Below are positions 31,463 to 63,253 of a stretch of 64,000 nt of DNA, piece by piece. Origin of the DNA: Mustelus asterias. Its lineage: Eukaryota. Numbering within the stretch: the stretch's first letter is position 1; every line of letters starts with the position of its first letter. A program made the position numbers and the translations under genes. The notes beneath the pieces were generated by a model that was given only the letters and a program-made list of their open reading frames with translations, had not been told where the DNA came from and ran no database searches. Where the stretch lies: NCBI RefSeq assembly GCF_964213995.1, contig NW_027590186.1, positions 620,001 through 684,000 on the forward strand, in the 5' to 3' direction.

Positions 31463-31520
31463 CTGCAGTCACCGTCACCATGGTACCTTGTCCCCAGTAA
31501 TCCCAGTACCACTGATGTAT
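31463..31520 (-). other. Immunoglobulin heavy-chain germline-joined D(D)-JH segment
   Basis: Reads IHQWYWDYWGQGTMVTVTA then G|gtaag. It has the JH WGxG motif and a phase-1 donor, and begins immediately at a 12-RSS heptamer. Confidence 0.88.
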
Positions 31521-31548
31521 CACAGTAACACATACCCGCACAAAAACT
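31521..31548 (+). promoter_or_regulatory. 12-bp-spacer recombination signal sequence flanking the DJ segment
   Basis: CACAGTA + 12 nt (acacatacccgc) + ACAAAAACT. Confidence 0.92.
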
Positions 31549-31873
31549 GCACTCACTCTCCAGAACACATTTACTTCCGAACCAGTTTAGAATATATGCA
31601 GTACTTTTTCAAAATACAATGAACACAACCTTATCCAAAGTGTCAGATACATTAAAACGAGCGTTATATTCAGGTCTGTCGTTGCTGAAACTTTTAAAAG
31701 TATATACAGAGAAAATACCACATCCAATTACATGGGTATGCTTGTTAGGTTTTGTGTTGCAGTTTCGTTCTCTTAGGTTTGTGGGCCGGTTATGAACTCT
31801 GCTATTAATATCACATTTAAAACAAGTACTGACCTTCAGGTTACACTGGAAGCTGTTGCATTCCCTCCGGAGC

Positions 31874-31912
31874 TGTTCTTGTTCGGGTGCAGCCCTGGTT
31901 CCTCTCGCTGTG
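31874..31912 (-). promoter_or_regulatory. 23-bp-spacer RSS of the VH
   Basis: CACAGCG + 23 nt + ACAAGAACA directly after YYCSRH. Confidence 0.88.
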
Positions 31913-32383
31913 GTGTCTTGAACAGTAATAGATGGCGGTGTCTTCAGCCTTCAGGTTAGTAATTTCCAAAGCGAAGATGCTGTTAGAAGTGTCTTTCGAC
32001 GGAGTACATCGATTTTGAATTCCAGGCGCGGAGTAATTGCTGGATGAACCGTCGTACTGAAGCAGCCACTCCAGACCCTGTCCGGGAACCTGTCGGATCC
32101 ACCGCATGTAAGCGCTACCAAGGCTGAAGCCGCTGGTTTTACAGGTCAGTTTCAGGGAGCCTCCCGGACGTCCGGTCTCTGCCTCTGACTGAGTCAACAC
32201 GACCTGCGTCTAGACACCTGTAAAAATAGATTAAAAACGCCGAGGATTAATTCTGGTGAAGTGATTGCTGACTCTGGAATATTCCAGAGATAGACGAACA
32301 CTAACAGTTAGAGACTTGGACAATAAAAACTACTCACCGGATAAGAAAGTCAGCAACAAACTGAGAGAAATCGCCGACCTCAT
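31913..32383 (-). pseudogene. IGHV: IgM-type VH gene segment (leader exon 32338-32383, V exon 31913-32217) with one nonsense codon
   Basis: Leader MRSAISLSLLLTFLS G|gtgagt; acceptor ttttacag|; then [50 protein letters not shown]...[13 protein letters not shown] at 32210-32212 is the only stop. Confidence 0.93.
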
Positions 32384-32473
32384 CCTTCTGGTAAATTGGG
32401 GGAAATGGTTGTGTCAGGAACTCAGTGAACAAACCAGCTCCTCGACTGTTGGATTCCGGTCCCACTGAGCGGC

Positions 32474-32483
32474 ATTTAAATAC
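32474..32483 (-). promoter_or_regulatory. TATA-like box of the VH promoter
   Basis: gtatttaaat ~90 bp upstream of the leader ATG in a GC-rich patch. No ATGCAAAT octamer was seen nearby, as expected for shark VH promoters. Confidence 0.55.
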
Positions 32484-35400
32484 CCGGCAGCAGGGTGCGG
32501 CTTTCGAGGCGCCGCCTGTTGATTCCCTGCTGGAGGCGGCGACTGGATTCGTCCCACCTTCCACACCCCAACAGAATGGACTCCGAGATTTACAGTAGGT
32601 TAATATTAAAATTGGCATTTTATTTGTGTCGGGATATTTGTTTGGCTGAATATGTTCATTATATTGTCTCCATTATTTCTGATGGTGATATTGCAGTTCA
32701 TCATCCTTTATTTAAAAGAAAAAACGAATTCCATTGTAAGTATGGTGCTTTTATTACCACGCCCCTAACAAGAACATACATCTGAAAATGATGAAATAAC
32801 ATTTTCGGAAAATAAAGAGACAATCAGTCTATTTTGCAACAATCCCTGGTCTCTGTCACATTATAATAATAAAGCATAATTTATCAGAATAATTGTTATC
32901 GATTTCTGTTACTAAACGTGGGGGATGAACAAAGTGATTCTATTTACAGTGTGGATGGCTATCACTGGATAATTTGGAATTGGAGATGAGAAGAAACTCT
33001 CACACAATACAGTTTTTCTCCTTCTATTTGTCAAACTGCACAATCTCGAAGACAGCCCTTTGAAAATAATAAGAATCCCGCCCTCCGGATAATCGAATAG
33101 TGAGTTGACAGAGAGACATAAACTTAAATCGAATTTTGACAGAGAAGTTAATTAATGGAACGGACACGGAGATCATTAAAGTTCTCCTTCAGCATCCAAA
33201 TCATTGCAGCTCACTCTATTGGCCACCAGCTGTCGAACATTCACTGGTGTTGGGAACACAGGATATCAGGACTTTGCGGCACATTACACAAAATTACAAG
33301 AATAAATGTTTTATCTTCCATTGAATCAGGTTATGACCTGATCATTTCTCCACTCATTGGCAGCTATGAGAGGAACCCTTCAATAATGGAAATCAGATTA
33401 TACTGTACAATAGAATAGGGTATTAATCACGTACAAGAGACGCTGCTGTTTAAATGCGATACAGAATTTTCAGAATATTCCAGGAATCCCCGCTGTTCAT
33501 GTCAGTTTTATGATGTGCTTTTAATATTATTTCGATGCATTTTTGGCCATTGCTCTGATCTCAATTGACTGGGGAATTGGGACCATCAACGTCTCTCTGT
33601 CGCATTTTATGAAGTGGTTAATAAACAGACTTTAATTATTGGAATGGCATTTACTTGGAAGTTATACAAATGAAAAAGCATCTGGTCACTTTATTGTTTT
33701 GCGATACTATTTACTCACATAATGAACAGGACACTGAATGAAAATATTTGATTTGAATGATTACGATTTAAAATGTGTCTTTCTTTTGCGAATGAAACAT
33801 TTATTGTTTAAATGTCTGAATCCCATCTTGTCCATTCAGGTTCACGCGAATCTGTCCCACACAGTATTTCGCAGCAATCCAGCCTTCTGCCAAATGCTCA
33901 AAGTTATTGACAGGAAGCATCTGGCTTTGTTTGTGCAGTAAATCAAAGATCTCTTTCCTCAGTAGTGACTGCTTGGCTGCAAGCCAACTTAAAACCCTTC
34001 ACATTGTCAATGGGGCCCATTTGTAAACACATCTACCGAGCAACAGTACTGGAGGCACTTTAATTTTTTTCAGTTGTAAATCTGGATGAGTTTTTCCCAT
34101 CTCTCATGAAAGGAAAGTTATGCAGGTTCTCCGGCACCCTGTTCGAAACAATGATGATTTTTCCAACACATCATGATATTGTGATGGATGGGTAGAAAGA
34201 ATTACAGGCAGACTCTGAGAGATGAGTCAGAGTGAGGACACATGTTGTAATACATTAACATGTATGTTTGTGTTTTCTTTCCCTTTACCTTTCCATGGGA
34301 TGCTTGAGTTGGTGGAAAGACCAGCACTTTTTGCCTGTCCCAAATTCCCTTGAACTGCCTGGTTTTCTAGGCCACCTCTGAAGATATTAAAGAGTCAGCC
34401 ATTTTGTTGTCCATCGGGAGTCACATCCTTGTGAGTCCAGGTAGCCATGGCAGATTTATTTCATTGGGGAATTAGAGAGGTTCCTATGGTCACCAATAGT
34501 ATCTATTCCAGATTTATTAATTGAATTCAAATTCCACCAGGGGCAATGGTCCGATTTAAATCCGTGCCCTCACATCATTGTCCTGGGCCTCTGGATCACT
34601 GGCCTAAATAAAGTAATATTACGTCACCATCTATGCAAACAATAAATGCATGACTGTGTTGATGCAGGAATGAATGATAGTTGAATGAATGATAGTTGGA
34701 TGAAGGACAGTTTGATGGCTGAATATTTTGATTGAGGAATCAGTGAATGGATTGATAGATGCATTGGTAGATGGTACTGAAAGATTCTGTTCTACATTCC
34801 CATATTTGTGCTTGGCTGCTTCAGAAATTGAAGAAGCTCCTTTATTCCATTTGTGTCAGGCTAATACCTCCAATTCTTCCAGAGTGTCTGGGTGAAATAC
34901 GTTCCGATTTGCTCGGGAGTTAGCAAGTTGATCCTCACGAAGAGAAGGACATTTTCCTGCGGCTCGGATGGTTCATTTCTCTGCTGATGCTGAATCTTCA
35001 TACCCAAGATAGAAAGAGGGAACGTGATTAGGTTGAGGAGCAAGGATTGTAGTATTTCAAACATGTGGTTCTATCTGTGCAACAAATCACTCAACATGCC
35101 CTCACCCAAATTTGTGAAGGTAACAGGCTGAAAAGTAAATAATCTGGCAACAGAGATATTGTGAAACTCACTGGACAACTACAAGTGTGACCTCATTTCC
35201 CAAAACAGAGTCATAAAGAATCGGGATTTAAAGCTTCAGTAACTGCACATGAGGTACAGATAGTTTCATTTATCTCATCTCTTTGAAAATCATCACACAC
35301 TCCAGTTACGTAGCAGCAGTTTCTGTGTGATGATGAGGTGATTAATTGTTAATAAAGCACAGAGGCTGCGAGAGAGCTGCTCATTATCGTCGGTCTGAAT

Positions 35401-35539
35401 CAATTCCATTTCCCACTGAATTCTGGGACAGATTATATTCCTTGGTGACAAAAAGGCCAATACAATGTCAATAAATGTTCATATCAATAAATCATACGAA
35501 GCAAAGTACAATTATATGTTGAATAGAATGAAATACCGA

Positions 35540-36045
35540 AAACAAACAAAATGCTGGAAAATCTCAGCAAGTCTGACAACCACTGTGGAGACAGAATAGA
35601 GCCAACGTTTCGAGTCTGGATGACGCTTCGGCAGAGTATTCCTGATGCGTTGGAGAGATCATCATTGTTTCTAATAATGTGTCAGAGAAGCTGCATAACT
35701 TTCCTGTGAAATGGGAATAGTTCAAATCGATACTGTTTAATTATATACACTATTTAGAGTCACACACAAGTTGTATCAATTCAAATACCGATTCCAAATA
35801 TCATAATCAACTTCTCCATCCGAGCTAACCTAATCAACGCCTCAATCATTAACTATATCCTAAAAAAACTTCCTTCGCACTATCCACCCTCAACATTTCT
35901 CAATTTCATCACCCTCTTCAATTTTCTCCAAATAAAAAATGGTCATCCTGACTCAAAACGTTGGCTCTATTCTCTCTCCACAGATGCTATCAGACCCGTT
36001 GAGATTTTCCAGCATTTATTATTTTTGTTTCAGTTTCCAGAATTT
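35540..36045. mobile_element. Inverted pair of Penelope-like terminal-repeat fragments (35540-35637 minus; 35940-36045 plus)
   Basis: aaaatgctggaaaatctcagc...gccaacgtttcgagtctggatgac and its reverse complement gtcatcctgactcaaaacgttggc...gagattttccagcattt. Confidence 0.6.
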
Positions 36046-36361
36046 GCTTTTATCAAAATACTGAATATATTTGGTGAAATAATTGTTTATCTCTATGAAT
36101 TGATGATAATTGGGGAATTGGAACAAACCCGCCTGGAAATTCCACTCCAATACACTCATAAACATGACTTGGCCATATATTGCCGTTCATTTACTGTCGC
36201 TGCGTCGGAATCCAGGAGCACCCTCCCTAACAGCACTGTGGGTGTGCCTACACTGCAGGTTGTGCAGCGGTTCAAGAAGGCGGCTAACCACTAGTTTACT
36301 GAATGCAAAGAGCAATGGAGAATAAATGATGGCCATGACAACATCGCCTGCCTTCCATAAA

Positions 36362-38041
36362 ACATAGAACATAGAACATAGAACATTACAGCGCAGAACA
36401 GGCCCTTCGGCCCACGATGTTGCACCGACCAGTTAAAAAAAAACTGTGACCCTCCAACCTAAACCAATTTCTTTTCGTCCATGAACCTATCTACGGATCT
36501 CTTAAACGCCCCCAAACTAGGCGCATTTACTACTGATGCTGGCAGGGCATTCCAATCCCTCACCACCCTCTGGGTAAAGAACCTACCCCTGACATCGGTT
36601 CTATAACTACCCCCCCTCAATTTAAAGCCATGCCCCCTCGTGCTGGATTTCTCCATCAGAGGAAAAAGGCTATCACTATCCACCCTATCTAAACTTCTAA
36701 TCATCTTATATGTTTCAATAAGATCCCCTCTTAGCCGCCGCCTTTCCAGCGAAAACAATCCCAAATCCCTCAGCCTCTCCTCATAGGATCTCCCCTCCAT
36801 ACCAGGCAACATCCTGGTAAACCTCCTCTGCACCCTCTCCAAAGCCTCCACATCCTTCCTGTAATGTGGGGACCAGAACTGCACACAGTACTCCAAGTGC
36901 GGCCGCACCAGAGTTGTGTACAGTTGCAACATAACGCTACGACTCCTAAATTCAATCCCCCTACCAATAAACGCCAAGACACCATATGCCTTCTTAACAA
37001 CCTTATCTACTTGATTCCCAACTTTCAGGGATCTATGCACACATACACCTAGATCCCTCTGCTCCTCCACACTATTCAAAGTCCTCCCGTTAGCCCTATA
37101 CTCAACACATCTGTTATTCCTACCAAAGTGAATTACCTCACACTTCTCCGCATTAAACTCCATCCGCCACCTCTCGGCCCAACTTTGCAACCTGTCTAAG
37201 TCTTCCTGTAAACTACGACACCCTTCCTCACTGTCTACCACACCACCGACTTTGGTGTCATCAGCAAATTTGCTAATCCACCCAACTATACCCTCATCCA
37301 GATCATTAATAAATATTACAAACAGCAGTGGCCCCAAAACAGATCCCTGAGGTACACCACTTGTAACCGCACTCCATGATGAATATTTACTATCAACCAC
37401 CACCCTCTGTTTCCTATCCGCTAGCCAATTCCTGATCCAATTTCCTAGATCACCCCCAATCCCATACATCTGCATTTTCTGCAGAAGCCTACCATGGTGA
37501 ACCTTATCAAACGCCTTACTAAAATCCATATATACCACGTCCACTGCCTTGCCCCCATCCACCTCCTTGGTCACTTTCTCAAAAAACTCAATAAGGTTAG
37601 TAAGGCACGACCTACCTGCCACAAAACCATGCTGACTATCACCTATCAATTCATTACTCTCCAAATAACTATAAATCCTATCCCTTATAATTTTTTCCAA
37701 CATCTTGCCGACAACAGAAGTGAGACTCACCGGTCTATAATTCCCGGGGAAGTCTCTGTTCCCCTTCTTAAACAATGGGACAACATTCGCTAACCTCCAA
37801 TCTTCTGGTACTATACCAGAGCCAACGACGACCTGAAGATCAGAGCCAGAGGCTCTGCAATCACTTCTCTTGCCTCCCAGAGAATCCTTGGATAAATCCC
37901 ATCCGGACCAGGGGATTTATCTATTTTCAGACCCTCCAGAATATCCTGCACATCCTCCTTATCAACTGTAATACTGTCTATTCTACTCCCTTGCAACCCA
38001 GTGTCCTCCTCAGCTATATTCATGTCCCCTTGCGTGAACAC
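36362..38041 (-). mobile_element. Young 5'-truncated CR1 LINE
   Basis: 438-aa open RT ORF at 36459-37775; (ttctatg)n tail. Confidence 0.92.
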
Positions 38042-39186
38042 CGGAAAGTAATTTTTAATATGCTAATCATTATGAATGATTGAGAACTGCTGAATGAATT
38101 ATTAAATTGTGAATGAACAACAAAGAACAAAGAACAATACAGCACAGGAACAGGCCCTTCGGCCCTCCAAGCCCGCGCCGCTCCCTGGTCCAAACTAGAC
38201 CATTCTTTTGTATCCCTCCATTCCCACTCCGTTCATATGGCTGTCTAGATAAGTCTCAAACGTTTCCAGTGTGTCGGCCTCCACCACCTTGCCTGGCAGC
38301 GCATTCCAGGCCCCCACCACCCTCTGTGTAAAATATGTCCTTCTGATATCTGTGTTAAACCTCCCCCCCTTCACCTTGAACCTATGACCCCTCGTGAACG
38401 TCACCACCGACCTGGGGAAAAGCTTCCCACCGTTCACCCTATCTATGCCGTTCATAATTTTATACACCTCTATTAAGTCTCCCCTCATCCTCCGTCTTTC
38501 CAGGGAGAACAACCCCAGTTTACCCAATCTCTCCTCATAACTAAGCCCCTCCATACCAGGCAACATCCTGGTAAACCTCCTCTGTACTCCCTCCAAAGCC
38601 TCAACGTCCTTCTGGTAGTGTGCCGACCAGAACTGGACGCAGTATTCCAAATGCGGCCGAACCAACGTTCTATACATCTGCAACATCAGACCCCAACTTT
38701 TATACTCTATGCTCCGTCCTATAAAGGCAAGCATGCCATATGCCTTCTTCACCACCTTCTCCACCTGTGACGCCACCTTCAAGGATCTGTGGACTTGCAC
38801 ACCCAGGTCCCTCTGCGTATCTACACCCTTTATGGTTCTGCTCCTCCCTACATTATTTATAGCTCCTCCCTACATTATTTCTACCAAAATGCATCACTTC
38901 GCATTCATCAGGATTGAACTCCATCTGCCATTTCTTTGCCCAAATTTCCAGCCTATCTATATCCTTCTGTAGCTTCTGACAAGGCTCCTCACTATCTGCA
39001 AGTCCTGCCAATTTTGTGTCGTCCGCAAACTTACTGATCACCCCAGTTACACCTTCTTCCAGATCATTTAAATAAATCACAAACAACAGAGGTCCCAATA
39101 CAGAGCCCTGCGGAACACCACGAGTCACAGGCCTCCAGCCGGAAAAAAGACCCTTCCACTACCACCCTCTGTCTTCTGTGACCAAG

Positions 39187-39422
39187 TAAGAAGTTTAACA
39201 ACACCAGGTTAAAGTCCAACAGGTTTATTTGGTAGCAAAAGCCACACAAGCTTTCGGAGCTGCAAGCCCCTTCTTCAGGTGGACTCACCTGAAGAAGGGG
39301 CTTGCAGCTCCGAAAGCTTGTGTGGCTTTTGCTACCAAATAAACCTGTTGGACTTTAACCTGGTGTTGTTAAACTTCTTACTGTGTTCACCCCAGTCCAA
39401 CGCCGGCATCTCCACATCATGA
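39187..39422. mobile_element. Palindromic Penelope-like terminal element with a 14-bp target duplication
   Basis: ~95-bp perfect inverted arms centred near 39283; flanked by cttctgtgaccaag at 39173-39186 and 39423-39436. Confidence 0.8.
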
Positions 39423-40152
39423 CTTCTGTGACCAAGCCAGTTCTCCACCCATCTAGCCACCTCCCCCTTTATCCCATGAGATCCAACCTTTTTCACCAGC
39501 CTACCATGAGGGACTTTGTCAAACGCTTTACTAAAGTCCATATAGACGACATCCACGGCCCTTCCCTCGTCAACCATTCTGGCCACTTCTTCAAAAATCT
39601 CCACCAGGTTAGTGAGGCATGACCTCCCTCTCACAAAACCATGCTGACTATCGTTAATGAGTTTATTCCTTTCTAAATGCGCATACATCCTATCTCTAAG
39701 AATCTTCTCCGACAACTTTCCCACCATGGACGTCAAGCTCACCGACCTATAATTACCCGGGTTATCCTTCCTTCCCTTCTTAAATAACGGGACCACATTA
39801 GCTATCCTCCAATCCTCTGGGACCCCACCTGCATCCAGTGACGAGACAAAGATTTGCGTCAGAGGCCCAGCGATTTCATCTCTCGTCTCCCTGAACAGGC
39901 TTGGATAGGTTCCATCAGGCCCTGGGGATTTGTCAGTCTTTATATTCTCGAACAAACCTAACACTTCCTCCTTTGTAATGGAGATTTTCTCCAACGGTTC
40001 AAAACTCCCCTCCGAGACACTCCCAGTCAACACATCCCTCTCCTTTGTGAATAGCGACGCAAAGTATTCATTTAGGATCTCCCCTACTTCTTTGGGCTCC
40101 AAGCATAATTCCCCACTTTTGTCCCTGAGAGGTCCGATCTTTTCCCTGACAA

Positions 40153-41347
40153 CCATAAGACCATAAGACCATAAGACATAGGAGCGGAAGTAAGGCCATT
40201 CGGCCCATCGAGTCCACTCCACCATTCAATCATGGTTGATTTCAACTCCATTTACCCGCTCTCTCCCCATAGCCCTTAATTCCTCGAGAAATCAAGAATT
40301 TATCAATTTCTGTCTTGAAGACGCTCAACGTCTCGGCCTCCACAGCCCTCTGTGGCAATGAATTCCACAGACCCACCACTCTCTGGCTGAAGAAATTTCT
40401 CCTCATCTCTGTTCTAAAGTGACTCCCTTTTATTCTAAGGCTGTGCCCCCGCGTCCTAGTCTCCCCTGTTAATGGAAACAACTTCCCTACGTCCATCCTA
40501 TCTAAGCCGTTCATTATCTTGTAAGTTTCTATCAGATCTCCCCTCAACCTCCTAAACTCCAATGAATATAATCCCACGATCCTCAGACGTTCATCGTATG
40601 TCAGGCCTACCATTCCTGGGATCATCCGTGTGAATCTCCGCTGGACCCGCTCCAGTGCCAGTATGTCCTTCCTGAGGTGTGGGGCACAAAATTGCTCACA
40701 GTACTCCAAATGGGGCCTAACCAGTGCTTTATAAAGCCTCAGAAGTACATCCCTGCTTTTGTATTCCAAGCCTCTTGAGATAAATGACAACATTACATTT
40801 GCTTTCTTAATTACGGACTCAACCTGCAAGTTTACCTTTAGAGAATCCTGGACTAGGACTCCCAAGTCCCTTTGCACTTTAGCATTATGAATTTTGTCAC
40901 CGTTTAGAAAATAGTCCATGCCTCTATTCTTTTTTCCAAAGTGTACGACCTCGCACTTGCCCACGTTGAATTTCATCAGCCACTTCTTGGACCACTCTCC
41001 TAAACTGTCTAAATCTTTCTGCAGCCTCCCCACCTCCTCAATACTACCTGCCCCTCCACCTATCTTTGTATCATCGGCAAACTTGGCCAGAATGCTCCCA
41101 GTCCCGTCATCTAGATCGTTAATATATAAAGAGAAGAGCTGTGGCCCCAACACTGAACCCTGCGGGACACCACTTGTCACCGGTTGCCATTCTGAGAAAG
41201 AACCTTTTATCCCAACTCTCTGCCTTCTGTCTGACAGCCAATCGTCAATCCATGTTAGTACCTTGCCTCGAATACCATGGGCCCTTATTTTACTCAGCAG
41301 TCTCCCGTGAGGCACCTTGTCAAAGGCCTTTTGGAAGTCAAGATACA
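40153..41347 (-). mobile_element. Young 5'-truncated CR1 LINE nested in an older CR1
   Basis: 368-aa open ORF at 40242-41348; (tcttatgg)n tail. Confidence 0.9.
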
Positions 41348-42815: not shown

Positions 42816-43394
42816 GGCCCCTGTGCAGATTAGAATAGAGTCCGTCTCTGTTAATACTTTGTTGGACCAGAACTCAGTTTATATAGCACTAGACACACTC
42901 TCTGGTTATGTAATATTTGATCCTGACCCTCCGCATATTTGACTAGACTGTGTCAGTGTCATTCCTGCACTTAGCTATGCCTATGTTTGAATTATATTTA
43001 CAATACTCCTCGTTATGCAAGAAGAAGAGATAAAATGTTGGGATAAAAACATTGGTGTCTGGCAGGATCCTGAAATGGGCAGTATTGGATCGACAATATT
43101 TGGTCAGTGCAAGATTGGAGGGCCGAAGGGCCTGTCCCTTTGCTGTAATTTTCTTTGTTCTTTGTTGACAGTGCATGCTATACAGACAGAGTTGTCCAGC
43201 GCAATATAAACTCATTTCTGATCCAGCAGAGTATTAACAGAGACAGACACTATCCACTTCCAATGCAGTCAGCAGAAGTAGATATCAGACATCGCTTCTG
43301 CTTTTCCATTGCCCAAGACCTCGTAGAATTCAAATGTTTAGGAGGATGCGGAGAATTGTGCTCCCCCATCCACTTTCCTCGGTACTGGCATTAT

Positions 43395-46377: not shown

Positions 46378-46899
46378 GGAATCTTCGGTTTTCAGTTATT
46401 TCCAAAGAGAAGATGTCGTTTGAAGGATAAAATCAAATTACTGCATATTCTGGAATTGAAACCAAAAGAGAAAATGCTGGAAAATCTCATCAGACCTGGC
46501 AATATTTGTGAGGAGAGAAAAAATCTGACGTTTCGAGTCCAGATGACCTTTTGACAAAGCTTTGACAAAGGGTCATCTGGACTCGAAAAGTCAGCTCTTC
46601 TCTCTCCTTACAGGTGCTGCCAGACTTGCTGAGATTTTCCAGCATTTTCTCTTTCCGTTGTTTGAAGTGTCTTTGGGCTGAGTAAATTGATTCTGAATCC
46701 TGGGGCGGAGGAATTGTAGGTTGACCAAGACTATCGTACTGAGTAAGACACTATAAACACTGTTCAGGAACCTGTCGCACCAAGACCAGCCAGTTGCTGC
46801 CACTACTGAACGCTTTGGCTTTACAGGTCAGTCTCAAAGATCCTCAGGGACGCCCGGCTTCTGCCTCTGGCTGAGTCAACACAACCTCCGATTCGACAC
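46378..46899 (-). pseudogene. IGHV: Second IgM-type VH pseudogene, paralogue of 31913-32217
   Basis: [53 protein letters not shown]...APGIQNQFTQPKDTSNN, an insertion, then IFSLEI..KTED. Stops and frameshifts present; YYC, RSS and leader exon absent. Intron and upstream homology to 32225-32980 is seen at ~47250-47660. Confidence 0.88.
46426..46656. mobile_element. Palindromic Penelope-like terminal element inserted in VH framework 3
   Basis: Inverted arms centred on acaaagctttg (~46560); target duplication gt(c/t)gtttgaag at 46415-46425 and 46657-46667. Confidence 0.75.
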
Positions 46900-46934
46900 T
46901 CGTAAACATGTCTAAAATCCTATGAAAACAAAAC

Positions 46935-47245
46935 GCCACGCACCCCGGACATACTCTCTCACCTTTTTCCCATCGGGAACAAAACCCAAAAATCTGAGGA
47001 CACGTACAAACCGTCTGGAAAACAACTTCTTTCCTGCTGCAATCAGACTTTTGAATGGACCTACCTCGCATCAAGTTGATCTTTCTCTACACCCTAGCTA
47101 TGACTGGAACACTACATTATTCACTCTTTCCCTTCCTTCCCTATGTACGTTATGTTCTGACTGTACAATGCGCAAGAAACAATAATCTTCACTGTGTACT
47201 AATATGTGCGATAATAATAAATCAAATGAAATGAAATCAAATCAA
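46935..47245 (+). mobile_element. Rex1/Babar 3' fragment inserted in the VH pseudogene leader intron
   Basis: RTRTNRLENNFFPAAIRLLN; (aaatc)n tail. Confidence 0.8.
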
Positions 47246-48844
47246 ACATAATATATCAAAACCACCAAGGATTATTCCCGGTGAATTGATTGCTGACACT
47301 GGAACATTCCAGAGACAGACGAACACTGAGGCAGTAACAGTGAGATCCATTGTCACGTCTTTGCTAGTCCAAGAGGTGAAATGCATTTGAACATCTGTTA
47401 TAGAAAATAAACAATTTCACTGTAAATTAAGTGCCTTTATTTCTGCACCCCTTCACAAGGGAATGGACATACACAAGATGAGATTACCTTATCAGGGTCA
47501 ACACGTCAGTCTGATTTGCAGTAATTCTGTGTCTCTAACATATTGCAGCAAAAATATAATTCATTACAGGAACTATTATCGATTTATGTAACTTAATGCT
47601 GGAATGATTGTATTTCAGGTGTGGATAGCTATCACTGTAATTTGGGAGTGGATCGAAGAAGGGAAGAAGTGGCTCAAAACAACCTCAAGTCCCTCAGCCT
47701 TTCCTCATAAGACCTTCCCACCAAACCTCTGCACCCTTTCCAATGCATCCACATCCTTCCTATAATGCGGTGACCAGAACTGTACGCAATACTCCAAGTG
47801 CGGCCGCACCAGAGTTTTGTACAGCTGCAACATGACCTCCTGGCTCCGAAACTCAATCCCTCTATTCTCGCGAGACAATTAATCCACAAACTCAACTAAT
47901 GTTCTCAGGACCCGGTTTCGAATCCTGCCATGGCAGATGGTGGAATTTAAATTCAGTAAAAAACATCTGGAATTAAGTAGCTACTTATGACCATGATATC
48001 ATTGTCGATTGTGTACAAACCTATCTGGTTCATTAATGTCCTTTAGAGAAGCAAATATGCCGTCCTTACCTCATCGAGCCGACATGTGATTGCAGAGCCA
48101 CAGCAATATGATTGGCTCTCAACCGCAGTTGGCACCTGATCAGGTGGAGGGGCTGAAACCACAAGGGCATCTCAGGGTCGTGACCTGGGGATATGAAGCC
48201 AAGTTGGGTCTGAGTGGTTTCTGAGGAAGTTGAAGGGCTGCTTTGTGCTGAGGAGTTCAGTGAGGGGTAAAAGAGACGTGAAAAACCCTGGGTTGGGAAG
48301 TTTTGTGTTGGTGCCACATCCCCGGATCGGTGTGCGGTGGCCTCCGCAGGAGAGGCGGGCTGGCCCGACTTGCCTCCTACTCGAGCCCCCGGCTCCCCGC
48401 GTGGCCTCTGCTGCTGCCATTCAGGTTGTGCTCGAGGGTCCACTTGTGCCAGCGCGCGTGGTTGGCATGCCCCTCCCCTGCAGCCATGGCAACGCCGCAG
48501 ACCGTTAACCGTCCCCTCTTTCAAATCTGATTCCGATCCGGGTAAGAACCCGCGCGAGTCCATCAACAAACCACACCCGCTGCAATGCGCATGTGCGACC
48601 CCAACCTCCTCAGCATTCTGCGTACACCGCCCATTGGCCCGCCCCCACATCGCCGCCATCTTTGTTAAGGGCACATTGTTTCTTCATCTTCTGTCCAAAC
48701 GGAGCACGTCTGCCCCACACAAAGATACACATCACTTAATATCAGAGATATTTAAAATATTGTTTTTATCGCCTCAACCGTAACGCCGCATAAAACGTCA
48801 ATAAAACCGACAGGACCTTGTCTCCTCATTCAGCAACCAAAATC

Positions 48845-53870: not shown

Positions 53871-54700
53871 ATAATTTAAATCTTTTCTGCTTTTCTTTGC
53901 TCTTCGCTCTGATGAAGGGTCATCCAGACTTGAATCGTTGGCTCGTTACTCAATATTTGTTTCGTTATTCGATATTAAATATTAATACATGTATTTAATA
54001 CATACATCTTCATTCTGAATTGAATATCTCGGGAATATGCAACATTGCATTGCAAACATGATTGACAAATAAAATAAATCGAGTCACTGGGTAACACACA
54101 TCCCATGGTGCCTATTTGAGACAGTCAGCTTTTAAACAAAATCAAGTATCTTTAAAGGGAAAAGATTTAAGAATGATTTGCTCGTTATACTTGATCCCTC
54201 TTGATTCTGCATGTGAAACATTCTGGCGCCTAAATCCCGTTCACCAGTCGGAAAGTCCAGCAGATCTACGCTGAGTTTCGATTTACTCATCTGCCTGAGT
54301 GATTTTTTTCCCATTTCTTTATTATGAGGAACAATTTTAAAAATATGCTTCCGGGAAATGTGCGTCATTTCCTTTAGTTCAGTTACAGTTTCACTTGTGT
54401 CTGTCTTTATGAGCACACACTACTATTACACATGTTTCAGATGATGATTAACTATGTTAGTCTGCATTTATAAAACCATTAAATTCTGTTATGGACTGAA
54501 CAATTTGCTCAGATGCGCACGGTGTCAAAGTACAAACATTTATTTCCTCACTGCGTCTTAAATTACAGCATTTCTGATTTTGCTGAAAGCATTTGTGGCC
54601 GAGTTCAGAGCAAAGATAACATGGCTGCAACATGGAGAATCGGATAATGTTCAGCAAACAACTACCATGCAAAACTTGCCTCACACTGAATGACGATGAA

Positions 54701-54773
54701 TATTGCTGCCCGGTTTCGAACCGGGGACTTTTCGCGTGTGAAGCGAACGTGATAACCACTACACTACAGAAAC
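54701..54773 (-). tRNA. tRNA-Val(CAC), near-intact with an acceptor-stem mismatch
   Basis: GTTTCTGTAGTGTAGTGGTTATCACGTTCGCTTCACACGCGAAAAGTCCCCGGTTCGAAACCGGGCAGCAATA, 73 nt; intact A and B boxes; anticodon CAC. Confidence 0.85.
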
Positions 54774-55802
54774 AACTGTTTGTATTGCGCCGCCAATTGG
54801 CCTGGCCACAGTGTTCAACTCCACTGTGTTGCTGCAGGTTCGAATGGTTATCCGGAGAGCCCATGTCACTGAATACAAGACAAAAATCGTTTCTTTCAAC
54901 CTGATTTCTCAAGTTATCTTGAACTTCAACCTTTAAAAGCGGTCGTCGGGCAAATATCGAAGGAAGCAATGATTTCTGCTCAATCATTAATGCATCATTC
55001 TCATCTTCCTTCGAATAATTTCAACCAGTTCTACCCAGTATTTGTTCGTTGTTCAATGTTTAATATTAATATATTTTTATTAATTACATATCTCCTCATT
55101 CTGAATGACATATCTCCGAAATAGACAACATTCAATTTCAAACATGACTGACCAACGAAAGGAATCGAATCACTGGGTAATACACATGTCACGGTGCTTC
55201 ATTGAGATTGACCACAATCAGCTTTTAAACAAAATCAAATATCTTTAAAGGGAATAGATTTAAGAATGACTTGTTAGTTATACTTGATCCCTCTTTATTC
55301 TGTGTGTGAAACACTCAGGCATCTAAATCCTGTTCAGCTGTGGGAAAGTCCAGTAGATCCGCACTGATTCTCGATTTCCTCAACTGTCTGAGTGGTTTTC
55401 CCTCTTTGTTTCCTCTGAAGAATGATGTTAAAATAATGGTTCCGCGCAATGTGCGTCATTTCCTCTAGTTCAGTTACAGTTTCACTTGTCTCTGCCTTTT
55501 TGAGCACACAATACTATTAGACATGGTTCAGATGATGATTAACTTTGTTAGTCTGCATCAACAAAGCCATTAAATTCTGTTGTGGACTGAATGAGTTGCT
55601 GATATGTCCACGGTGTCAAAACAGCAACATCTATTTCCTCTCATTAAGTCATAAAAATACAAGATCTCTGATTTTGCTGAAAGATTTTGAGGCCGAGGAC
55701 AGAGCAAAGATAACATGGCTTTAATATTGAGTTTCGGATAATGTTCAGCAACAAATTTCAATCATGTAAACTTCCCTCACTCTTAATGAACAAATGTTAA
55801 TA

Positions 55803-55875
55803 ATATTTCGGCATGGTTTTGAACTAGGGACTTTTGTGTGTGAGGCGAATGCAACCACCATTACACTACAGAAAC
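55803..55875 (-). pseudogene. tRNA-Val(CAC) pseudogene
   Basis: GTTTCTGTAGTGTAATGGTGGTTGCATTCGCCTCACACACAAAAGTCCCTAGTTCAAAACC..., with many CpG-type transitions breaking the stems. Confidence 0.8.
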
Positions 55876-55965
55876 TGCTGGCGTCTGTAGGACACAATGG
55901 AACTCTCTTGAAATGTTGCAACATTCATTGGGACTGCTGTAGACATCTTGATCCAAGAATGACTT

Positions 55966-57350
55966 TGATTTGATTTGATTTATTATTGTCACATGTATTA
56001 ACATACAGTGAAAAATATTGTTCCTTGCGCTCTACAGACAAAACATACCGTTCATAGAGAAGGAAATGAGAGTGTGCAGAATGCAGTGTTACAGTCATAG
56101 CGAGGGTGAAGAGAAAGATCAACTTAATGCAAGGTAAATCTATTTAAAAGTTTGGCAGCAGCAGGGAAGAAGCTATTCTTGAGTCGGTTGGTACGTGACC
56201 TCAGACTTTTGTATCTTTTTCCCGAAGGAAGAAGGTGAAGGAGAGAATGTCCGGGGTGCATGGGGTCCTTAATTATGCTGGCTGTTTTGCCCAGGAAGCG
56301 GGAAGTGTAGACAGAGTCAATGGATGGGAGGCTGGTTTGTGTGATAGATTGGGCACATTCATGACCTTTTATAGTTCCTTGCAGTCTTGGGTAGAACAGG
56401 AGCCATACCAAGCTATGATACAACCAGAAAAAATGCTTTCTATGGTGCATCTGTAAAAGTTGGTGAGAGTCGTAGCTGACATGCCAAATTTCCTTCGTCT
56501 TCTGAGAAAGTAGAGGTGTTGGTGGGCTTTCTTAACTATACTGTCGGCATGGGGGGGACCAGGACAGATAGTTGGTGATCTGGACACCTAAAAACCTGAA
56601 GCTCTCGACCTTTTCTACTTCGTCCCGTTGATGTAGACAGGGGCATGTTCTCCTTTACGCTTCCTGAAGTCGATGAGAATCTCCTTCGTTTTGTTGACAT
56701 TGAGGGAGAGATTATTGTTGTCGCACCAGTTCACCAGATTCTCTACCTCATTCCTGAACTCTGTCTCATCATTGTTTGAGATCCGACCCACTACGGTGGT
56801 GTCGTCAGCAAACGTGAAAATCGAATTGGAGAGGCATTTGGCCACACAGTCATACGTATATTAGGAGTGTAGTAGGGGGCTGAGAACACAGCCTTGTGGG
56901 CCACCAGTGTTGAGGACGATCGTGGAGGAGGTGTGATTGCCTATCCTTACAGATTGTGGTTTGTGAGTTAGGAAGTTTAGGATCCAGTCACAGAGGAGGT
57001 GCTGAGGCACAGGCCACGGAGTTTGGAGATGAGTTTCGTGGGAATAATAGTGTTGAAGGCTGAGCTGTATTCAACAAATATGAGTCTGTCCTTGTTATCT
57101 AGGTGATCCAGGGTTGAGTGCAAGGCCAGGGAAATGCCGTCTGCTGTGGACCTGTTGCGGTGGTAGGCAACTGTAGTGGATCCAGGTAGTCCGGGAGGCT
57201 GTAATTGATTCGTACCGTGACAAACCTTTCAAAGCACTTCATCATGATGGATGTCAGAGCCACCGGCCGATAGTCATTAAGACACGCTGCTTGATTTTTC
57301 TTAGGTACCGGGATGATGGTCATCTTCTTGAAGAAGATAGGGACCTCAGA
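55966..57350 (-). mobile_element. Rex1/Babar-type LINE, 5'-truncated
   Basis: IIPVPKK..CLNDYRPVALTS, FADDTTVVGRI and RTNRLKNSFFP; (aaatc)n tail. Confidence 0.88.
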
Positions 57351-57950
57351 TTGTTGTAATGATTGAAAATGGTTGACAATGGCAGAGAACAATAAGAGTC
57401 CCTTCGACCCACCATGCCTATGCCAGTTATTTTATGACGAGCTACCAAACTGACGTGTCGGTGCGGGCTTGGTGGGCCGAAGGGCCTGTTCCTGTGTTGC
57501 ACTGTTCTTTGCTCTCATTTCAGTTTCCTCCTCTCATTCCATGAAGCTGATTTTTCTCCCTTTCAAGTCATTGGCCAATCCCCATTTGAAGAAGGAGTTT
57601 CTGTGGAATCCATGTACAGTTTGCTTTAAGTTACAACGTTTCACTGACCCAATGGCATGAAGTATTGGATATAGCTTCCCAATATAGTTTTCAATGTAAA
57701 CATATATTTACAAATTTACAAAATTTACAAAACGAGTTTAATCGGATGAAGCATCTCCCCATTATTTCTGAATTATATATAATATAACTAATTAACTCCA
57801 CAACTTTCCAGAGTATGGAATATAACAGAGGAGAATGAATCACCTATACCTGAAGCAGTCTCCTTGTGTTGTCCTCCTGTGTCCCGAACATCCGATCTGG
57901 CAACCTCGAGAATGGGTGGGGAATCTGTCTTACCGACACTGACCTCACAC

Positions 57951-58240
57951 GGGGTGGCACGGTAGCACAGTGGCACACTGCTGCCTCACAGCGACAGGGA
58001 CTCGGGTTCGATTCCTGGCTTGGGTCTGAGTGGAGTTTGCACGTCCTTCCTGTGTCTGTGTGGATTTGCTCCAGTTTCCTTCCACAGTCCGAAAGATGTG
58101 CTGGTTAGGTGCATTCCCACGCTAAATTTCTCCCTTCGTGTACCCGAACAGTTGGCGAAGTGTGGCGACTAGGGGATTTTCACAGTAACTTCATTGCAGT
58201 ATTAATGTAATCCAGTTGTGACATTAATAAATAAACTTTA
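57951..58240 (+). mobile_element. HE1/V-SINE-type SINE
   Basis: ggggtggcacggtagcacagtgg...gggttcgattcc head followed by the V-SINE core. Confidence 0.8.
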
Positions 58241-58864
58241 AACATGATACGGACACATGCAGATATGTTTGGCTGTAAAAATAAATACATCCATTATTGC
58301 CTATTCTCCAAAAGTGTCCACTGTTGAGTCATCAATCAATGATCACCATTGATGAGAAATAGATTTCTGGCTGTTCCTTGTTGCTAAAATGGGCAGTTCC
58401 ATCGCAATGAATATCTAACACGGTATTGCCGCACTGACACGACCCCAGGGAATTCCAGTTCAGGAAGTTTACTCTGGAACTAGTACGTTTTTGACATTGT
58501 CCATGGGTGAACTTCTCTTGAGTGTGTCAGTGGATGTGTTAATCTGTTTGTTTATTTTCCTCAGTGATTGTCTGTGTGTCTATGTTTGAGTCGATCAGTT
58601 TGAGAATCGATCACTGTGTTTACTTGTCCCTGTGTCTATGCTTTTGTTGATTCTGTGCGGTATACGAGGCTTCTAGTGAACACGGAGTTGGAGTTATTCA
58701 TGTATTTTCATAGTTAGCAACTCAGACTAATGTGTCAGAAATCTACAGAATAATTCTGGATTTATAACGAGGGACATTGGAATTGATGTCTGTGTCTGGG
58801 CTTTTATCGATATGTTTATATATCCTGACACGTGTTGGTCTTTGCACGTGGCCGTGTGTGTATC

Positions 58865-59110
58865 TGCTCTCCCCGTGTCTGCGTGGGTTTCCTCCGTGTG
58901 CTCCAGTTTCCTCCAACAGTCCGAAAAGATGTGCAGGTTAGTTTGACTGGCCATGATAAACTGACCCTAGTGTCAGGGGGATTAGCGGGGTTAATGTATG
59001 AGGTTACGGGAAGAGGGCCTGGGTAGGTTTGTGATCGGTACAGACTCGTTGGGCCGAATGGCATTTTTCTGTACTGTACAAATTCTATGATTCTATGATT
59101 CTATGATTCT
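58865..59110 (+). mobile_element. HE1-type SINE 3' part
   Basis: ccccgtgtctgcgtgggtttcctcc core; (attctatg)n tail. Confidence 0.85.
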
Positions 59111-59388
59111 ATTATCTGGATATGTATCTATCAGCCTTTACAGGTGACCGTGTGTGTATCTGTTTCCAATATGCGGCATTGCTGTCCACGGGAGGGCGCT
59201 CTCTGATCACTTATGAAAAATCACGATTCCCTTCGAGAGGAAGCGTCTGTTTGAAGATGTAAAAATGGGCGGAGAGACGAAGTGACTTTCGGCCTCATAC
59301 CATTCCACTGACTGTTTCAACTTCTCCATTTCCAGGTCTTATGCAGACAGTGATCACTGCCTCTGTTTCTGGTGTTCAGACTGGAACT

Positions 59389-60105
59389 ATGGGGGTGAAA
59401 GTCTGTCTGTCTCTGGTTATTGTCCTGATGATGTGGAGATGCCGGCGTTGGACTGGGGTAAACACAATAAGAAGTTTAACAACACCAGCTTAAAGTCCAA
59501 CAGGTTTATTTGGTAGCAAAAGCCACACAAGCTGTCGGAGCTCCAAGCCCCTTCACTCACCTGAAGAAGGGGCTTGGAGCTCCGAAAGCTTGTGTGGCTT
59601 TTGCTACCAAATAAACCTGTTGGACTTTAACCTGGTGTTGTGAAACTTCTTATTGTCCTGCTCACAGGACGGTCATTTTGAACCTTTGACTGAAATCCGC
59701 CAATCACCATATTAATTGCCCATTTCCATTTCTAGGCGATTATTCCGTTGTTGTTACTCCTTCTAAACCGCTGCGCGTCTGTTGTCTATTTTCAGAGATG
59801 AGTAACGGCGACTCAGTGTCCCAGTCAGAACCAAGAGTTGAAGCAGCAGAGGGTGAAGATTCAGCAATACCCTGCAGTTACTCTGTATCGAGTTTAGCTA
59901 CAGTCTATGTCCTGTTCTGGTATCGCCAGTATCCACACCGAGCTCCTCAGTATCTGCTCAGAGCCGAGAGTTATGGATTTACCGATACGGCTCCCGGCTT
60001 TAAACATTTCAGCTGGAATCTCAGCGAGACACAAAGCACTTTTCACTTGTCCATGAAAGATTTGAAGATGACAGATAACGCCCTGTATTACTGTGCACTG
60101 AGACC
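59389..60105 (+). pseudogene. TCR alpha/delta V segment 1: intact V exon (59796-60105), disrupted leader exon (59389-59667)
   Basis: Leader MGVKVCLSLVIVL[insert]LT G|gacggt (donor GA, not GT). V exon MSNGDSVSQSEPRVEAAEGEDSAIPCSYS...WYRQYPHRAPQYLL...TDNALYYCALRP. Confidence 0.88.
59428..59649. mobile_element. Palindromic Penelope-like terminal element inserted in a TCR V leader exon
   Basis: Near-identical to 39187-39422 in the opposite orientation; target duplication ttattgtcctg at 59417-59427 and 59650-59660. Confidence 0.82.
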
Positions 60106-60144
60106 CACACTGAATGAGGATCCCGCGGGCTTCGTACAAAAACT
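60106..60144 (+). promoter_or_regulatory. 23-RSS of TCR V1
   Basis: CACACTG + 23 nt + ACAAAAACT. Confidence 0.9.
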
Positions 60145-61070
60145 GGCGCAGGTCCTCAATCAATGGTTCCTTGTCCGCAAAACACATTGCATTGAATTTC
60201 AGAGAAAATGTACAGATGATGAACCTGACAATGCTGCCCCAGCTGAGTGGCTTTCCCTCCCTAACGTCAGTGATTGTCACTGTTGGGGAAATGTGACATT
60301 TGGCGCTCAGATTATTCCTGGATAAATCCAATCATTTCCTGATCCCAATCACAAAACCCACAGATGTCCCGAGTGAATAACTTAATAAATCAGTACTTCC
60401 CATCTTTCTGTATCAGATGCCTATCTGTCAGGGGAACCTGTTAAATGTGATCCAATATTAAAGGCACACTGAGAGTTGTCACATTCTGAAGTTTCTGGAC
60501 AGAAATCATGACTGATTGAATCAGTACTTTCCCAGTATAAGAGTAATCCCAGTGGAAATGCAAGTCAATGTGGACTTGGGTGATTACTTATCCCCGGTAT
60601 AAATAAAGCAGTAGCTACTATTATGTTCATGCAGTGGATGCACTCATTAATACCCGCAGAGTAAATGAGGGTAAATTATTTATTTCACTTTTAACTTTAT
60701 TTAGAAAGAAAAATCTATCTATAAAAAGGGGGACATTGAGTTCGAATGAAAGAGGGTTAACCGAGAAAGAGACAGTGTAACTGATAATGTTATTCACCTC
60801 TCATGGAGAGAGAAAGAGCGTGAGAAAAACACACACAGCCCGGGATGGAATGTGTTTGGAGGGAGCCAGCTGTGTTTAGTCCTCCACTAACAGTGTTTGG
60901 TCCACAGCTGACGTTATCTCAAGGGGACCAGCCAATTGCAACACTGGGAAAACCCCCCAATTTGCCAATTATTGAAGCTGCCTCTGGTCTGAGTTTACTC
61001 CGTGATATAAGACTAGAAGCAACAACATATTTTAAACAGTGTCGCTGTTTACTGTCCATTCAGGAACCAC

Positions 61071-61510
61071 ATGTTCCCTGCGTGTTCTACTGATAATAAT
61101 GGACATGCTGCCCCGTGAGTCTGAGCTCAAATCCTCAGTGTGTGTTCAATGGGTTATATTCACTCACAGATTTCTCACACAGTCTATATGTTGTTACAGG
61201 AACCAATGGCCAAACTTCAGTTTCCCAGGAGCCGCCTGAATTAACGGTTCAGGAAGTACAGACGGTAATTTTGAACTGCAGTTATAAAGCTAAATACATT
61301 GACCAAACTCTATTCTGGTACATCCTGTATCCCGGAGAAGCTCCGAGATATTTATTGAAAAGTTACGGCCAGGGGAAGGGGGATAAGTCTCCTGATTTTT
61401 CGGACCAGTTTTCTGCTAATTTGGACAGAGACAAGAAAACAGCTCCATTAAATATCACCGGGGTCCGTGTCTCTGACTCTGCCGTGTATCTGTAACAGTG
61501 TGCGCTGAAC
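61071..61510 (+). pseudogene. TCR alpha/delta V segment 2 pseudogene (leader 61071-61114, V exon from 61200)
   Basis: Leader M(+1 frameshift)SLRVLLIIMDMLP C|gtgagt; V exon TNGQTSVSQEPPELTVQEVQTVILNCSYK...WYILYPGEAPRYLL...SDSAVYL*QCALN with a stop at 61493-61495. Confidence 0.88.
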
Positions 61511-61547
61511 CGCAGTTACAGAGTCACAGTTAGTCCGTACAAAAACC
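61511..61547 (+). promoter_or_regulatory. Degenerate 23-type RSS of TCR V2
   Basis: CGCAGTT + 21 nt + consensus ACAAAAACC; the heptamer CAC is broken and the spacer is short. Confidence 0.65.
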
Positions 61548-62912
61548 AGCAAAGGCATTCTCACCTCCTCTCACTGAATCCGATCTCTGAGCTGGATTGT
61601 GAACAGTTAATAGAAACAAAATCATCTCATTAAAACCAATTAAACCGAATGATCAGGTTCTTTGTGCTGAATGTCTGTCAGTGTATGTAAAATCCCTCTT
61701 TATAGTAGTTTCTGTCGTTTACGAGCAACTCTGAATAGGAGACTCTGGTGCTGTTATTACAACATGAAATAAAACTCATCAGAGTCATATCTCAAAAATC
61801 ATCTCAGTCAAAAACCATACATTCGCTTTAATGCACTCTATGTGTCAAAGAGAGCAATGATTGTACAGTCGTTTGATTTCTTGAAGGCAGTTGATAGATT
61901 TGTGGATATTCAGGGAAATAACGGATATGGAAGTAGTCAGAGAGTCATTGAGGTTTACAGCATGGAAACAGACCCTTCTGCCCAACTTGTCCATGCTACC
62001 CTCTTCTAACCACTATGCAAGTCCCAATTGCCCGCGTTTGGCCCATATCCCAACAAAATATTTGCCTGAGCATGAAGACTTATCCCGCGGTTTCGATTTC
62101 CCAAAGCACTTCTGGTGATTACAGCAGACTTTTAAAGAAAGACTTTCGGGCATGTGGGCGTCGCGGGCTCGGCCGCTATTTATTGCCCATCCCTAGTTGT
62201 CCTTCAGGAACTTTCTGACGCTCTTCTCAATTAGATTTCTGCATTCAGTCGATTTTCTTACCAAATGTTCCAGTGTCTAGAGTACACCAAACCTGTTCTT
62301 AGAGATTATTAATAGAGATATTAATCATTGTTCATTGGATTCTAAGCATGTATTGAAATAAACATTTGTACCTTTACTGTTAAGAATTCTTAGTTTTAAC
62401 ATGTGTCAAGTGTTCATTGTGTTAATATGAGTCACATTCTTCCGAACTCTTTCCAATGAAGTTTCTCTTCGATTCCCAGTTGATATTTTTATTTCATTAC
62501 TGTAACATTGAGAGATGTTTAATCAGGCTGATGTGATTATGAGGATTTGCCTCAGCAGGCGGGCATCAGTTTACACTATTGACTGACATATCAAACCGAA
62601 CAGTATTGGTTTCTTTGCCCCGAGTGTTCTTTGAAACATCTGAACAAGGGTACAACTAGTTCAAGGCTACCTGCAGCATTTTGAATTCTCAATATTAGTG
62701 CCGATTTCCCGGTGATTCCAAATAAACAACAGCTAATTCTTCCCTCGCACAGTGAATGTAATAATCAGACGGAATCTGTGAACGATTTTAGATGATGTTT
62801 GTGTGAATTGTGGTCTGGTTTGCGTTCACGGAATGTATTGACGTGTTAGTGTATAACCCGCTGTTAGAAACAGCACTCGACAGACAGCAGCTGTGACTCA
62901 GAAACCTGCGGC

Positions 62913-62951
62913 AGTTTTTGTACGAGGATTTCACTCGTTCTCATCACTGTG
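62913..62951 (-). promoter_or_regulatory. 23-RSS of TCR V3
   Basis: Consensus CACAGTG + 23 nt + ACAAAAACT. Confidence 0.93.
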
Positions 62952-63253
62952 AGACTCTGTGCACAGTAATAGACCGCAGTGTCAAACAGCCGCAGCTCCG
63001 AAATAGTCACTCGGTACAAATTGTCTGACTGCTGGACCGAATCAGAAAACCGGGTCCGAGCGAAATCCGCCTTTAATTCAAAACCGCCGTTTTTGTCTCT
63101 CCGGACTGCAAACTCGGGCTGTTTTCCTGGGTATTGACGATACCAGAATAAATAATAAGCATAGTCGGTGAAGGTGCAGTTTAAAGTGACATCTTCTCCC
63201 TCTGTCCGTGTGTGAGGATTCCCGCTGAGTAACAGAATCTCCATCGCTCAGAT
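62952..63253 (-). pseudogene. TCR alpha/delta (delta-like) V segment 3 with an apparent 2-bp deletion in framework 1; leader exon not found
   Basis: Acceptor gtgtttcag| then LSDGDSVTQRESSH(T), frameshift, RTEGEDVTLNCTFTDYAYYLFWYRQYPGKQPEF...RTRFS...DTAVYYCAQS. Confidence 0.87.

Follow-up and report, generated by a model that had tools for sequence, protein, structure and literature searches.

A dead IgM cluster remnant beside one of 19 TCR-delta units in Mustelus asterias, and a candidate germline IgM VH/TCR-delta gene

We analyzed a window of 64,000 nucleotides from the shark Mustelus asterias (contig NW_027590186.1, here C154, positions 620001-684000; positions beyond the window are given as the C154 position minus 620000), in which immunoglobulin M (IgM) heavy-chain variable (VH) sequences lie close to T-cell receptor (TCR) V segments. 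What the window holds is the remnant of a dead IgM cluster, lying in the downstream flank of a TCR-delta unit. We consider it likely that this unit is one of 19 in the assembly, which arose by block duplication and in part carry germline joints, including one on contig C138 where an IgM VH gene is fused to a TCR D-delta. The layout of VH beside TCR V is already published (PMC12227049), and the window's own VH adds nothing new. What appears to go beyond the known is the multi-copy TCR-delta unit and the candidate germline IgM VH/TCR-delta gene on C138.

The IgM cassette of the window is on the minus strand. A leader exon (32383-32338) precedes a VH exon (31913-32217; Pfam V-set, E-value 7.6e-15), which is followed by a recombination signal sequence (RSS) with a 23-bp spacer (23-RSS, 31874-31912), whose heptamer and nonamer are as in intact clusters. 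This VH is a pseudogene: an in-frame TAG at 32212-32210 occurs two codons into the exon, and the same stop is present in a 99% identical copy on contig C123. At a distance of 390 bp further on from the VH exon and its 23-RSS, a plus-strand 12-RSS (31521-31548) faces the VH and is followed by a minus-strand block (31463-31520) in which D and J are already joined. The J frame of this block is open and ends with WGQGTMVTVTA, and its GT splice donor is intact. The intact reference cluster on C194 has the order V-23, 12-D1-22, 12-D2-12, 23-J and then four C-mu exons. Compared with C194, the outer RSS of the window block is that of D1, the inner RSSs are lost, and the D and J coding ends are fused. 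The initial annotation had described a VH-DJ cassette; the 12-RSS D-J block is present, but it is better read as D1, D2 and J, probably composed of most of D1, about 6 nt that may come from D2, and J. The cassette is thus a partly germline-joined heavy-chain (IgH) cluster of the form V-DDJ without C, and it is not a functional IgM minicluster, as its reading frame is broken and C-mu is missing. Partial joins are common in this genome, the V-DD-J or V-D-DJ form occurring in 4 of the 10 IgM V-D-J regions examined. The corresponding block of C123 (677053-677110) is 2 nt shorter at the junction, and because of this difference the D frame that is in line with J is not the same in the two copies. 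A divergent IgH cluster at C185:393500-396300, 54% identical to the window VH and pre-joined as VD-DJ, is possibly an IgW cluster.

The minus-strand remnant of the J-C intron (21159-31462) was recognized by its similarity to C194, which is 82.5% over 26493-31503 and 79.8% over 21159-22191. About 6 kb of the intron is recognizable, and similarity ends about 4.7 kb short of the position that CH1 occupies in the intact cluster. The intron is split by a nearly full-length long interspersed nuclear element (LINE) at 22531-26165 on the plus strand, with an esterase-type first open reading frame and a second one that encodes endonuclease and reverse transcriptase and has one stop. Further reverse transcriptase fragments are present in the window at 36.5-41.4 and 52-53.5 kb. 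C-mu would be expected about 10-15 kb past J in a functional minicluster, and none was found within 71 kb downstream of the window J. More broadly, no CH1-CH4 exons were detected in C154:580001-816751 or C123:530001-710000, whereas the control, C194, was positive. The claim that the constant region had been lost is therefore borne out.

Two IgM-type VH genes had been proposed in the window. Both VH-related sequences are there, one with its leader and 23-RSS, but the first is the pseudogene described above and the second, identified from VH-related sequence and the tree (46385-47327, minus strand), is a decayed fragment with stops and insertions, at which no RSS was found. Similar broken VH copies are located about 11-30 kb upstream of many IgM VH genes across the genome. 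In a phylogenetic tree of V segments, in which the VH-like V of the TCR-delta units and catshark P0012 stood in for nurse-shark TAILV, the 31.9-kb VH belonged to the IgM-cluster lineage (clade support 98/96), apart from the VH-like V found 5' of D-delta. It is only 46-52% identical to the intact VH-like V of the units.

The TCR-delta unit to the right of the window (C154:714545-773270) contains, in window coordinates continued and all on the minus strand, a new antigen receptor (NAR)-TCR V-D-J cassette at 153 kb, a supporting V-delta at 147.9 kb, another TCR V at 141 kb, two broken VH-like V at 138.8 and 136.6 kb, one D with both a 12- and a 23-RSS (120026-120041), five J (119.8-105.6 kb), one of them with a stop, and a constant gene (98181-94545). 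The D, J and C thus lie 31-56 kb past the right end of the window, and the unit has the features of a TCR-delta locus, namely a D with a 12- and a 23-RSS, few J with 12-RSSs, and a NAR-TCR cassette upstream. The 23-RSS of the supporting V-delta is repeated in tandem on a 61-bp unit, with two copies in C154 and four in C123 (C123:567431-567650).

The constant gene clusters with catshark, skate and stingray delta models (97/98). Delta and alpha labels were taken from Table S1 of PMC12227049, where the catshark row is labelled TCRD; proteins were linked to the table by gene symbol for white shark and by matching description and species for catshark and stingray. Comparison with PDB structures alone did not separate alpha from delta. 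Automatic names suggested that the amplified constant gene was C-alpha, which its position and the tree ruled out. Its exon was revealed by a weak CH4 match after a pattern scan had missed it, and it was not among the 150 scored of 793 candidates in a Pfam C1-set genome search. Proteins of M. asterias match this neighboring constant exon at 85-100%.

The physical linkage of IgM and TCR V sequences in cis, as initially annotated, is real. The window is without any N, and C123 repeats positions 46708-67016 as a single block at 98.2%, which rules out a misjoin at 47-59 kb. Likewise, the TCR V segments are not an orphan group, since TCR D, J and C were found on the same contig to the right. Where the edge of a TCR V array had been supposed, there is instead the 3' flank of one of the 19 TCR-delta units.

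A genome search with the C1 exon of C-delta yielded 19 matches among 25 candidates, all without a stop. The transmembrane exon gave 21 matches, 19 of which were at 97-100% protein identity, and the remaining two were alpha genes. A hinge is present in all 19 C-delta genes. Over 4.2 kb the copies are 83.2-99.98% identical and form 9 groups at 99%; three of them, differing by 1.5-3.2%, are located on scaffold C71. The three-V cassette at the right end of the window occurs 26-34 kb 3' of C-delta in 13 of the 19 units. Of the other six, two are on contigs that end too early, three have no scored cassette match there, and in the C71 unit at 11.04 Mb the cassette is absent within 36 kb.

Sequencing depth points in the same direction. 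In run X1, the contigs of RAG1, for which a single match was found in the genome, had depths of 28.3 and 32.0, and the C-delta contigs had depths of 179.3, 141, 120.5, 90.7 and 48.3. The latter match classes of 7, 7, 5, 3 and 2 assembly copies, with two candidates for the class of five, and correspond to a depth of about 24 per copy. This suggests about 15 C-delta copies per haploid genome, contig depth being a poor measure of copy number. Two further samples from the same study, X3 and X4, had the C-delta exon covered at 7-20, whereas RAG1 showed any depth in no more than 6 and 7 of 30 bins, in pieces at 2-4. Run X5, from another organism, had only a 39-bp piece near the C-delta exon and was uninformative. 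Overall, the multi-copy TCR-delta unit is very probably real. Among the matches listed for protein models of other sharks, each species has a single delta-type C except Heptranchias, which has two; because Heptranchias perlo has two such models (P0009 and P0157, on contigs whose listed lengths are equal), C-delta duplication is not unique to the Mustelus lineage.

D-delta is visible in 18 of the 19 units (contig C3311 ends before it), being unjoined in 11 and joined in seven: C119, C436, C96, C850, C401, C71 (11.02 Mb) and C138. RAG joints trim coding ends and remove both RSSs. In the V-D joints of these units, the comparable coding ends have lost 0-9 nt, and both RSSs are gone. One V-D junction is common to C119, C436 and C96; as their C regions have diverged by 1.1-3.7%, the shared junction was passed on by duplication. 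C850, C401 and C71 (11.02 Mb) have three other junctions; in C401, CC precedes an untrimmed D that starts with GGGG, as palindromic (P) nucleotides would. The joined V-D of C850 (35972-36330) has two sides that resemble different units: downstream of D it is 99.98% identical to the unjoined C71 unit at ~12.25-12.27 Mb, and upstream it is 99.4% identical to C154. C850 is thus a possible product of recombination between two different units. C119, C436 (213414-213760) and C96 (1455090-1455420) are compact clusters of NAR V-D-J, joined V-D, J and C-delta. In addition, C71:10.999-11.024 Mb has a fully joined IgM VDJ with C-mu exons and, 25 kb downstream of it, a TCR V pseudogene that is joined to D-delta.

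The seventh joined unit is of a different kind. On the minus strand of C138 (217690-218470), an IgM leader, VH, the V-D1 spacer and the D1 12-RSS are followed by a fused D, a 23-RSS, four J-delta and C-delta. The fused D consists of the whole 17-nt IgM D1 and the last 10 nt of the 18-nt D-delta; it is open in all three frames, and the D-delta 3' heptamer is at 217701. Leader, VH, RSSs, the four J and C-delta are all open or intact, and the VH differs by one residue from that of the cluster on C140. C138 thus has an IgM VH in cis and in rearranging orientation to D-delta, J-delta and C-delta, with every part open, and is a candidate germline VH-delta gene. The join kept the 12/23 rule because the joined sides were those of the D1 22-RSS and the D-delta 12-RSS. 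From its sequence, the junction looks like a RAG coding joint that was fixed in the germline.

For C138, no identical unjoined parent was found, the nearest C region among the 18 others being 99.4% identical, and the D-J side is at most 97.2% identical to any of the 11 D-J regions compared. The VH side is 99.1-99.9% identical near the gene to four IgM clusters, and C138 carries a private 3.2-kb insertion that is missing from all four. The lack of an identical unjoined parent favors a germline joint on C138 without proving it, and we regard a germline origin as quite probable. Both C71 (7.06-7.14 Mb) and C123 offer a layout of the likely parental type, in which D-delta follows an IgM cluster of the same strand at a distance of 55-85 kb.

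A plausible course of events begins with repeated segmental duplication, which likely multiplied blocks that carried IgM clusters and TCR-delta together. Such duplication, by unequal crossing-over, would have brought IgM clusters into a position 55-85 kb upstream of D-delta in the same orientation, and RAG acting in germ cells would then have made the coding joints. On C138, IgM D1 would have been joined to D-delta with deletion of the intervening DNA, resulting in leader-VH-23 / 12-D1D-delta-23 / 12-J-delta / C-delta. A T cell would be predicted to finish this gene by two ordinary in-cluster joins, producing an IgM-VH TCR-delta chain.

Other explanations have to be weighed against a dead IgM remnant beside one of many duplicated TCR-delta units. 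The initial annotation proposed that a TCR V array took up an IgM cluster at its edge and that the window VH is an intermediate towards a VH-delta segment. The linkage, the loss of C-mu, and the intact VH 23-RSS, together with the 12-RSSs of D-delta and J-delta on the same contig, agree with this, so that the RSS types are compatible as was noted. However, the signals face away from each other. The window VH lies beyond C-delta, 62 kb to its 3' side and with the same orientation, therefore no chromosomal VH-delta join can be made, and judging from RSS orientation a join would put the coding joint on an excised circle. In addition, the stop is present in both copies, a second C-delta is absent from C154 and C123, and the phylogeny placed this VH in the IgM clade and not in the TCR-delta-associated lineage. 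Capture in the window is therefore largely refuted and we give it hardly any weight; the general idea of a VH-delta intermediate survives elsewhere, as it is C138, a candidate gene, and not the window, that appears to hold it. Assembly redundancy (haplotigs or false duplications of one or two loci) is also very unlikely to account for most of the C-delta copies. In its favor, short contigs carry most of them, and pairwise identity exceeds 99.5% in seven pairs and reaches 99.98% in one. Against this stand the divergent copies on one scaffold, the number of 99% groups, single C-delta contigs at about six times the RAG1 depth in X1, the coverage in X3 and X4 with RAG1 mostly uncovered, and the single RAG1 match. 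Several observations nevertheless weigh against our interpretation: contig depth measures copies poorly and X1 may be the assembly's own sample, several copies are more than 99.4% alike and may be haplotypes, and 16 of the 19 copies are on short contigs.

The same caution extends to the joints. If the amplification is real, the joined D-delta, including C138, could still be somatic T-cell rearrangements or chimeric contigs. IgM-V/TCR-delta rearrangements do arise somatically in sharks, according to the parts consulted of PMC3457774, and among the joined units C850, in which two known units seem to meet at the V-D junction, lends itself best to a somatic or allelic reading. The C138 junction is known from the assembly and may have a somatic or assembly origin. 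On the other hand, one junction is common to three diverged copies, C138 has no identical unjoined parent and carries an insertion that the four nearest IgM clusters lack, and a polyclonal somatic joint would be expected in only a small minority of reads. We find this explanation unlikely. A stronger competitor is that the units are real and germline but are mostly passengers of IgM-cluster block duplication, with only one or two expressed. Within the units, V segments are often broken and the quality of the J RSSs is uneven, and the purifying signal in C1 is weak: the proportions of nonsynonymous and synonymous differences (pN and pS) are about equal in the C1 exon for most of 7 pairs, so that selection on every copy was not shown, which also counts against our interpretation. 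In contrast, C1 and transmembrane exons are open in all 19, and the transmembrane protein is 97-100% identical even where the flanking DNA is 84%. This passenger explanation is a real possibility and is compatible with the structural part of the reading that we prefer. Duplicated TCR-delta units with germline joints remain that preferred reading; its functional extension is more tentative. It would hold that TCR-delta turned from one translocon into a multi-cluster system of about 15 loci, resembling that of the shark's antibodies, in which germline RAG continues to build new genes, C138 being an inherited, expressed hybrid and others being TCR-mu-like NAR-TCR clusters with a pre-joined supporting V, and we would put this at somewhat short of an even chance.

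The three TCR alpha/delta V segments that had been annotated in the window are present as V exons, but all are broken, by an insertion, a stop and a deletion, so that all five V segments of the window are defective. Together they form a cassette (58700-64000) that unit comparison identifies as the 3' flank of a TCR-delta unit. Pfam V-set E-values were 7.6e-15, 1.6e-14 and 3.9e-13 for the three tested of the window's five V segments, the 31.9-kb VH included, far beyond chance. V59 (59389-60144, plus strand; V exon 59796-60105) has an open V exon and an intact 23-RSS, but its leader exon is split by a 222-bp insertion, with an 11-bp duplication at 59417-59427 and 59650-59660, a lesion that was read from the window sequence and the genome-wide cassette comparison. 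The hairpin-like insertion (59428-59660) occurs in 8 of 31 scored cassette copies and marks one subgroup. V61 (61070-61550, plus strand; V exon ~61200-61510) is a pseudogene with a decayed RSS, and a TAA (61493-61495) takes the place of its second Cys. V63 (62913-63253, minus strand; V exon 63253-62952) retains a 23-RSS, but a 2-nt deletion near 63213, absent in the C123 and C138 copies, shifts its frame; a protein search with V63 gave no match. All 31 scored places match the cassette at 93-98% (the best 31 of 13,902 candidates). V59 is inverted relative to the C-delta on its right and, among window segments with an intact RSS, it alone appears to be placed for joining by inversion.

Two J-alpha arrays were identified by J counts and the tree, each ahead of a constant gene, with about 32 J with RSSs on C71 (18.37-18.43 Mb) and 136 on C546 (138-242 kb). 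Their constant genes group with catshark and white-shark alpha models (99/99) and are about 70% identical in the C1 exon; the TRA locus is likely duplicated. No J-alpha array was found after C-delta on C154, nor a C-delta in the 60 kb upstream of the C71 array. On C546, two D-delta-like relics (113600-113690 and 120790-120870) with a shortened 3' RSS lie upstream of the array, and a 200-N gap at 129550 precedes it, in which a C-delta could be missing.

The C138 junction bears on a wider question, namely by what path antibody VH genes came into the TCR-delta loci of sharks, frogs, birds and platypus. The model in PMC3457774 invokes insertion or translocation, and a captured intermediate is not named in the parts consulted. 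The junction offers a concrete route, in which the D of an IgM cluster is joined in the germline to the D of a TCR-delta locus linked to it; if true, C138 would show a VH-delta gene at the moment of its origin. The many intact C-delta loci also raise the question of how one T cell keeps to one delta chain.

Trans-rearrangement of IgHV to TCR-delta and TAILV were reportedly described by Criscitiello in 2010 and Deiss in 2019. The similarity to our data is an Ig VH used with TCR-delta D-J-C, and the Mustelus units have their own VH-like V upstream of D-delta. The difference is that the assembled genome already contains the first join on C138, with a VH one residue away from that of a current IgM cluster. 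As cited in the parts consulted of PMC12227049, PMC5931798 and PMC3457774, shark IgM/IgW-TCR-delta joins are somatic. Linkage of Ig and TCR genes is also treated in the part consulted of PMC3964593.

The elasmobranch complex, in the portion seen of Flajnik et al. 2025 (PMC12227049), has IgM clusters, lone IgM V, NAR-TCR cassettes and TCR alpha/delta V interleaved, as they are in Mustelus; an inverted V after C-delta is also mentioned there, and in white shark an IgM V is about 7 kb from a TCR V (Table S1). That portion describes TCR alpha/delta as a translocon, and Table S1 gives at most one C-delta per species (one in catshark, one in stingray, none for white or epaulette shark), in contrast to 19 in the Mustelus assembly. 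A germline joint of IgM D to D-delta is on C138, whereas the parts consulted of that paper contain none. In our literature searches, mostly of listings, we found no report of many shark C-delta genes or of such a joint; primary shark papers may bear on this. In newts, galliform birds and flounder, TRD is located away from TRA or has a second copy (PMC12698447, seen in part), and in these animals there are one or two TRD genes compared with the 19 C-delta genes here.

Partly germline-joined IgH clusters of elasmobranchs have long been known (PMC5192425, PMC2193156, PMC6795676, each consulted in part). The review among them, in the portion consulted, gives VD-J, VD-DJ and VDJ forms and regards such joining as peculiar to Ig genes. 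Mustelus shares with them RAG-type joints fixed in the germline and has V-DD-J and V-D-DJ clusters of its own, but its units are joined at the TCR D-delta and one joint extends across Ig and TCR. The closest layout is that of mammalian TCR-mu, which, in the parts consulted of PMC7615758 and PMC3457774, arose from TCR-delta and is arranged as serial [V-D-J]-[V]-C clusters, numbering 8-9 in marsupials, whose supporting V is pre-joined. A similar arrangement is seen in C119, C436 and C96, with NAR V-D-J, joined V-D, J and C. However, the outer V of the Mustelus clusters is NAR-type and groups in the tree with basking-shark NAR-type V, the supporting V is joined to D only, and the copies are among IgM clusters. 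The Mustelus C-delta clusters are thus a shark parallel to the clustered TCR-mu locus, of independent origin and outside TCR-mu itself.

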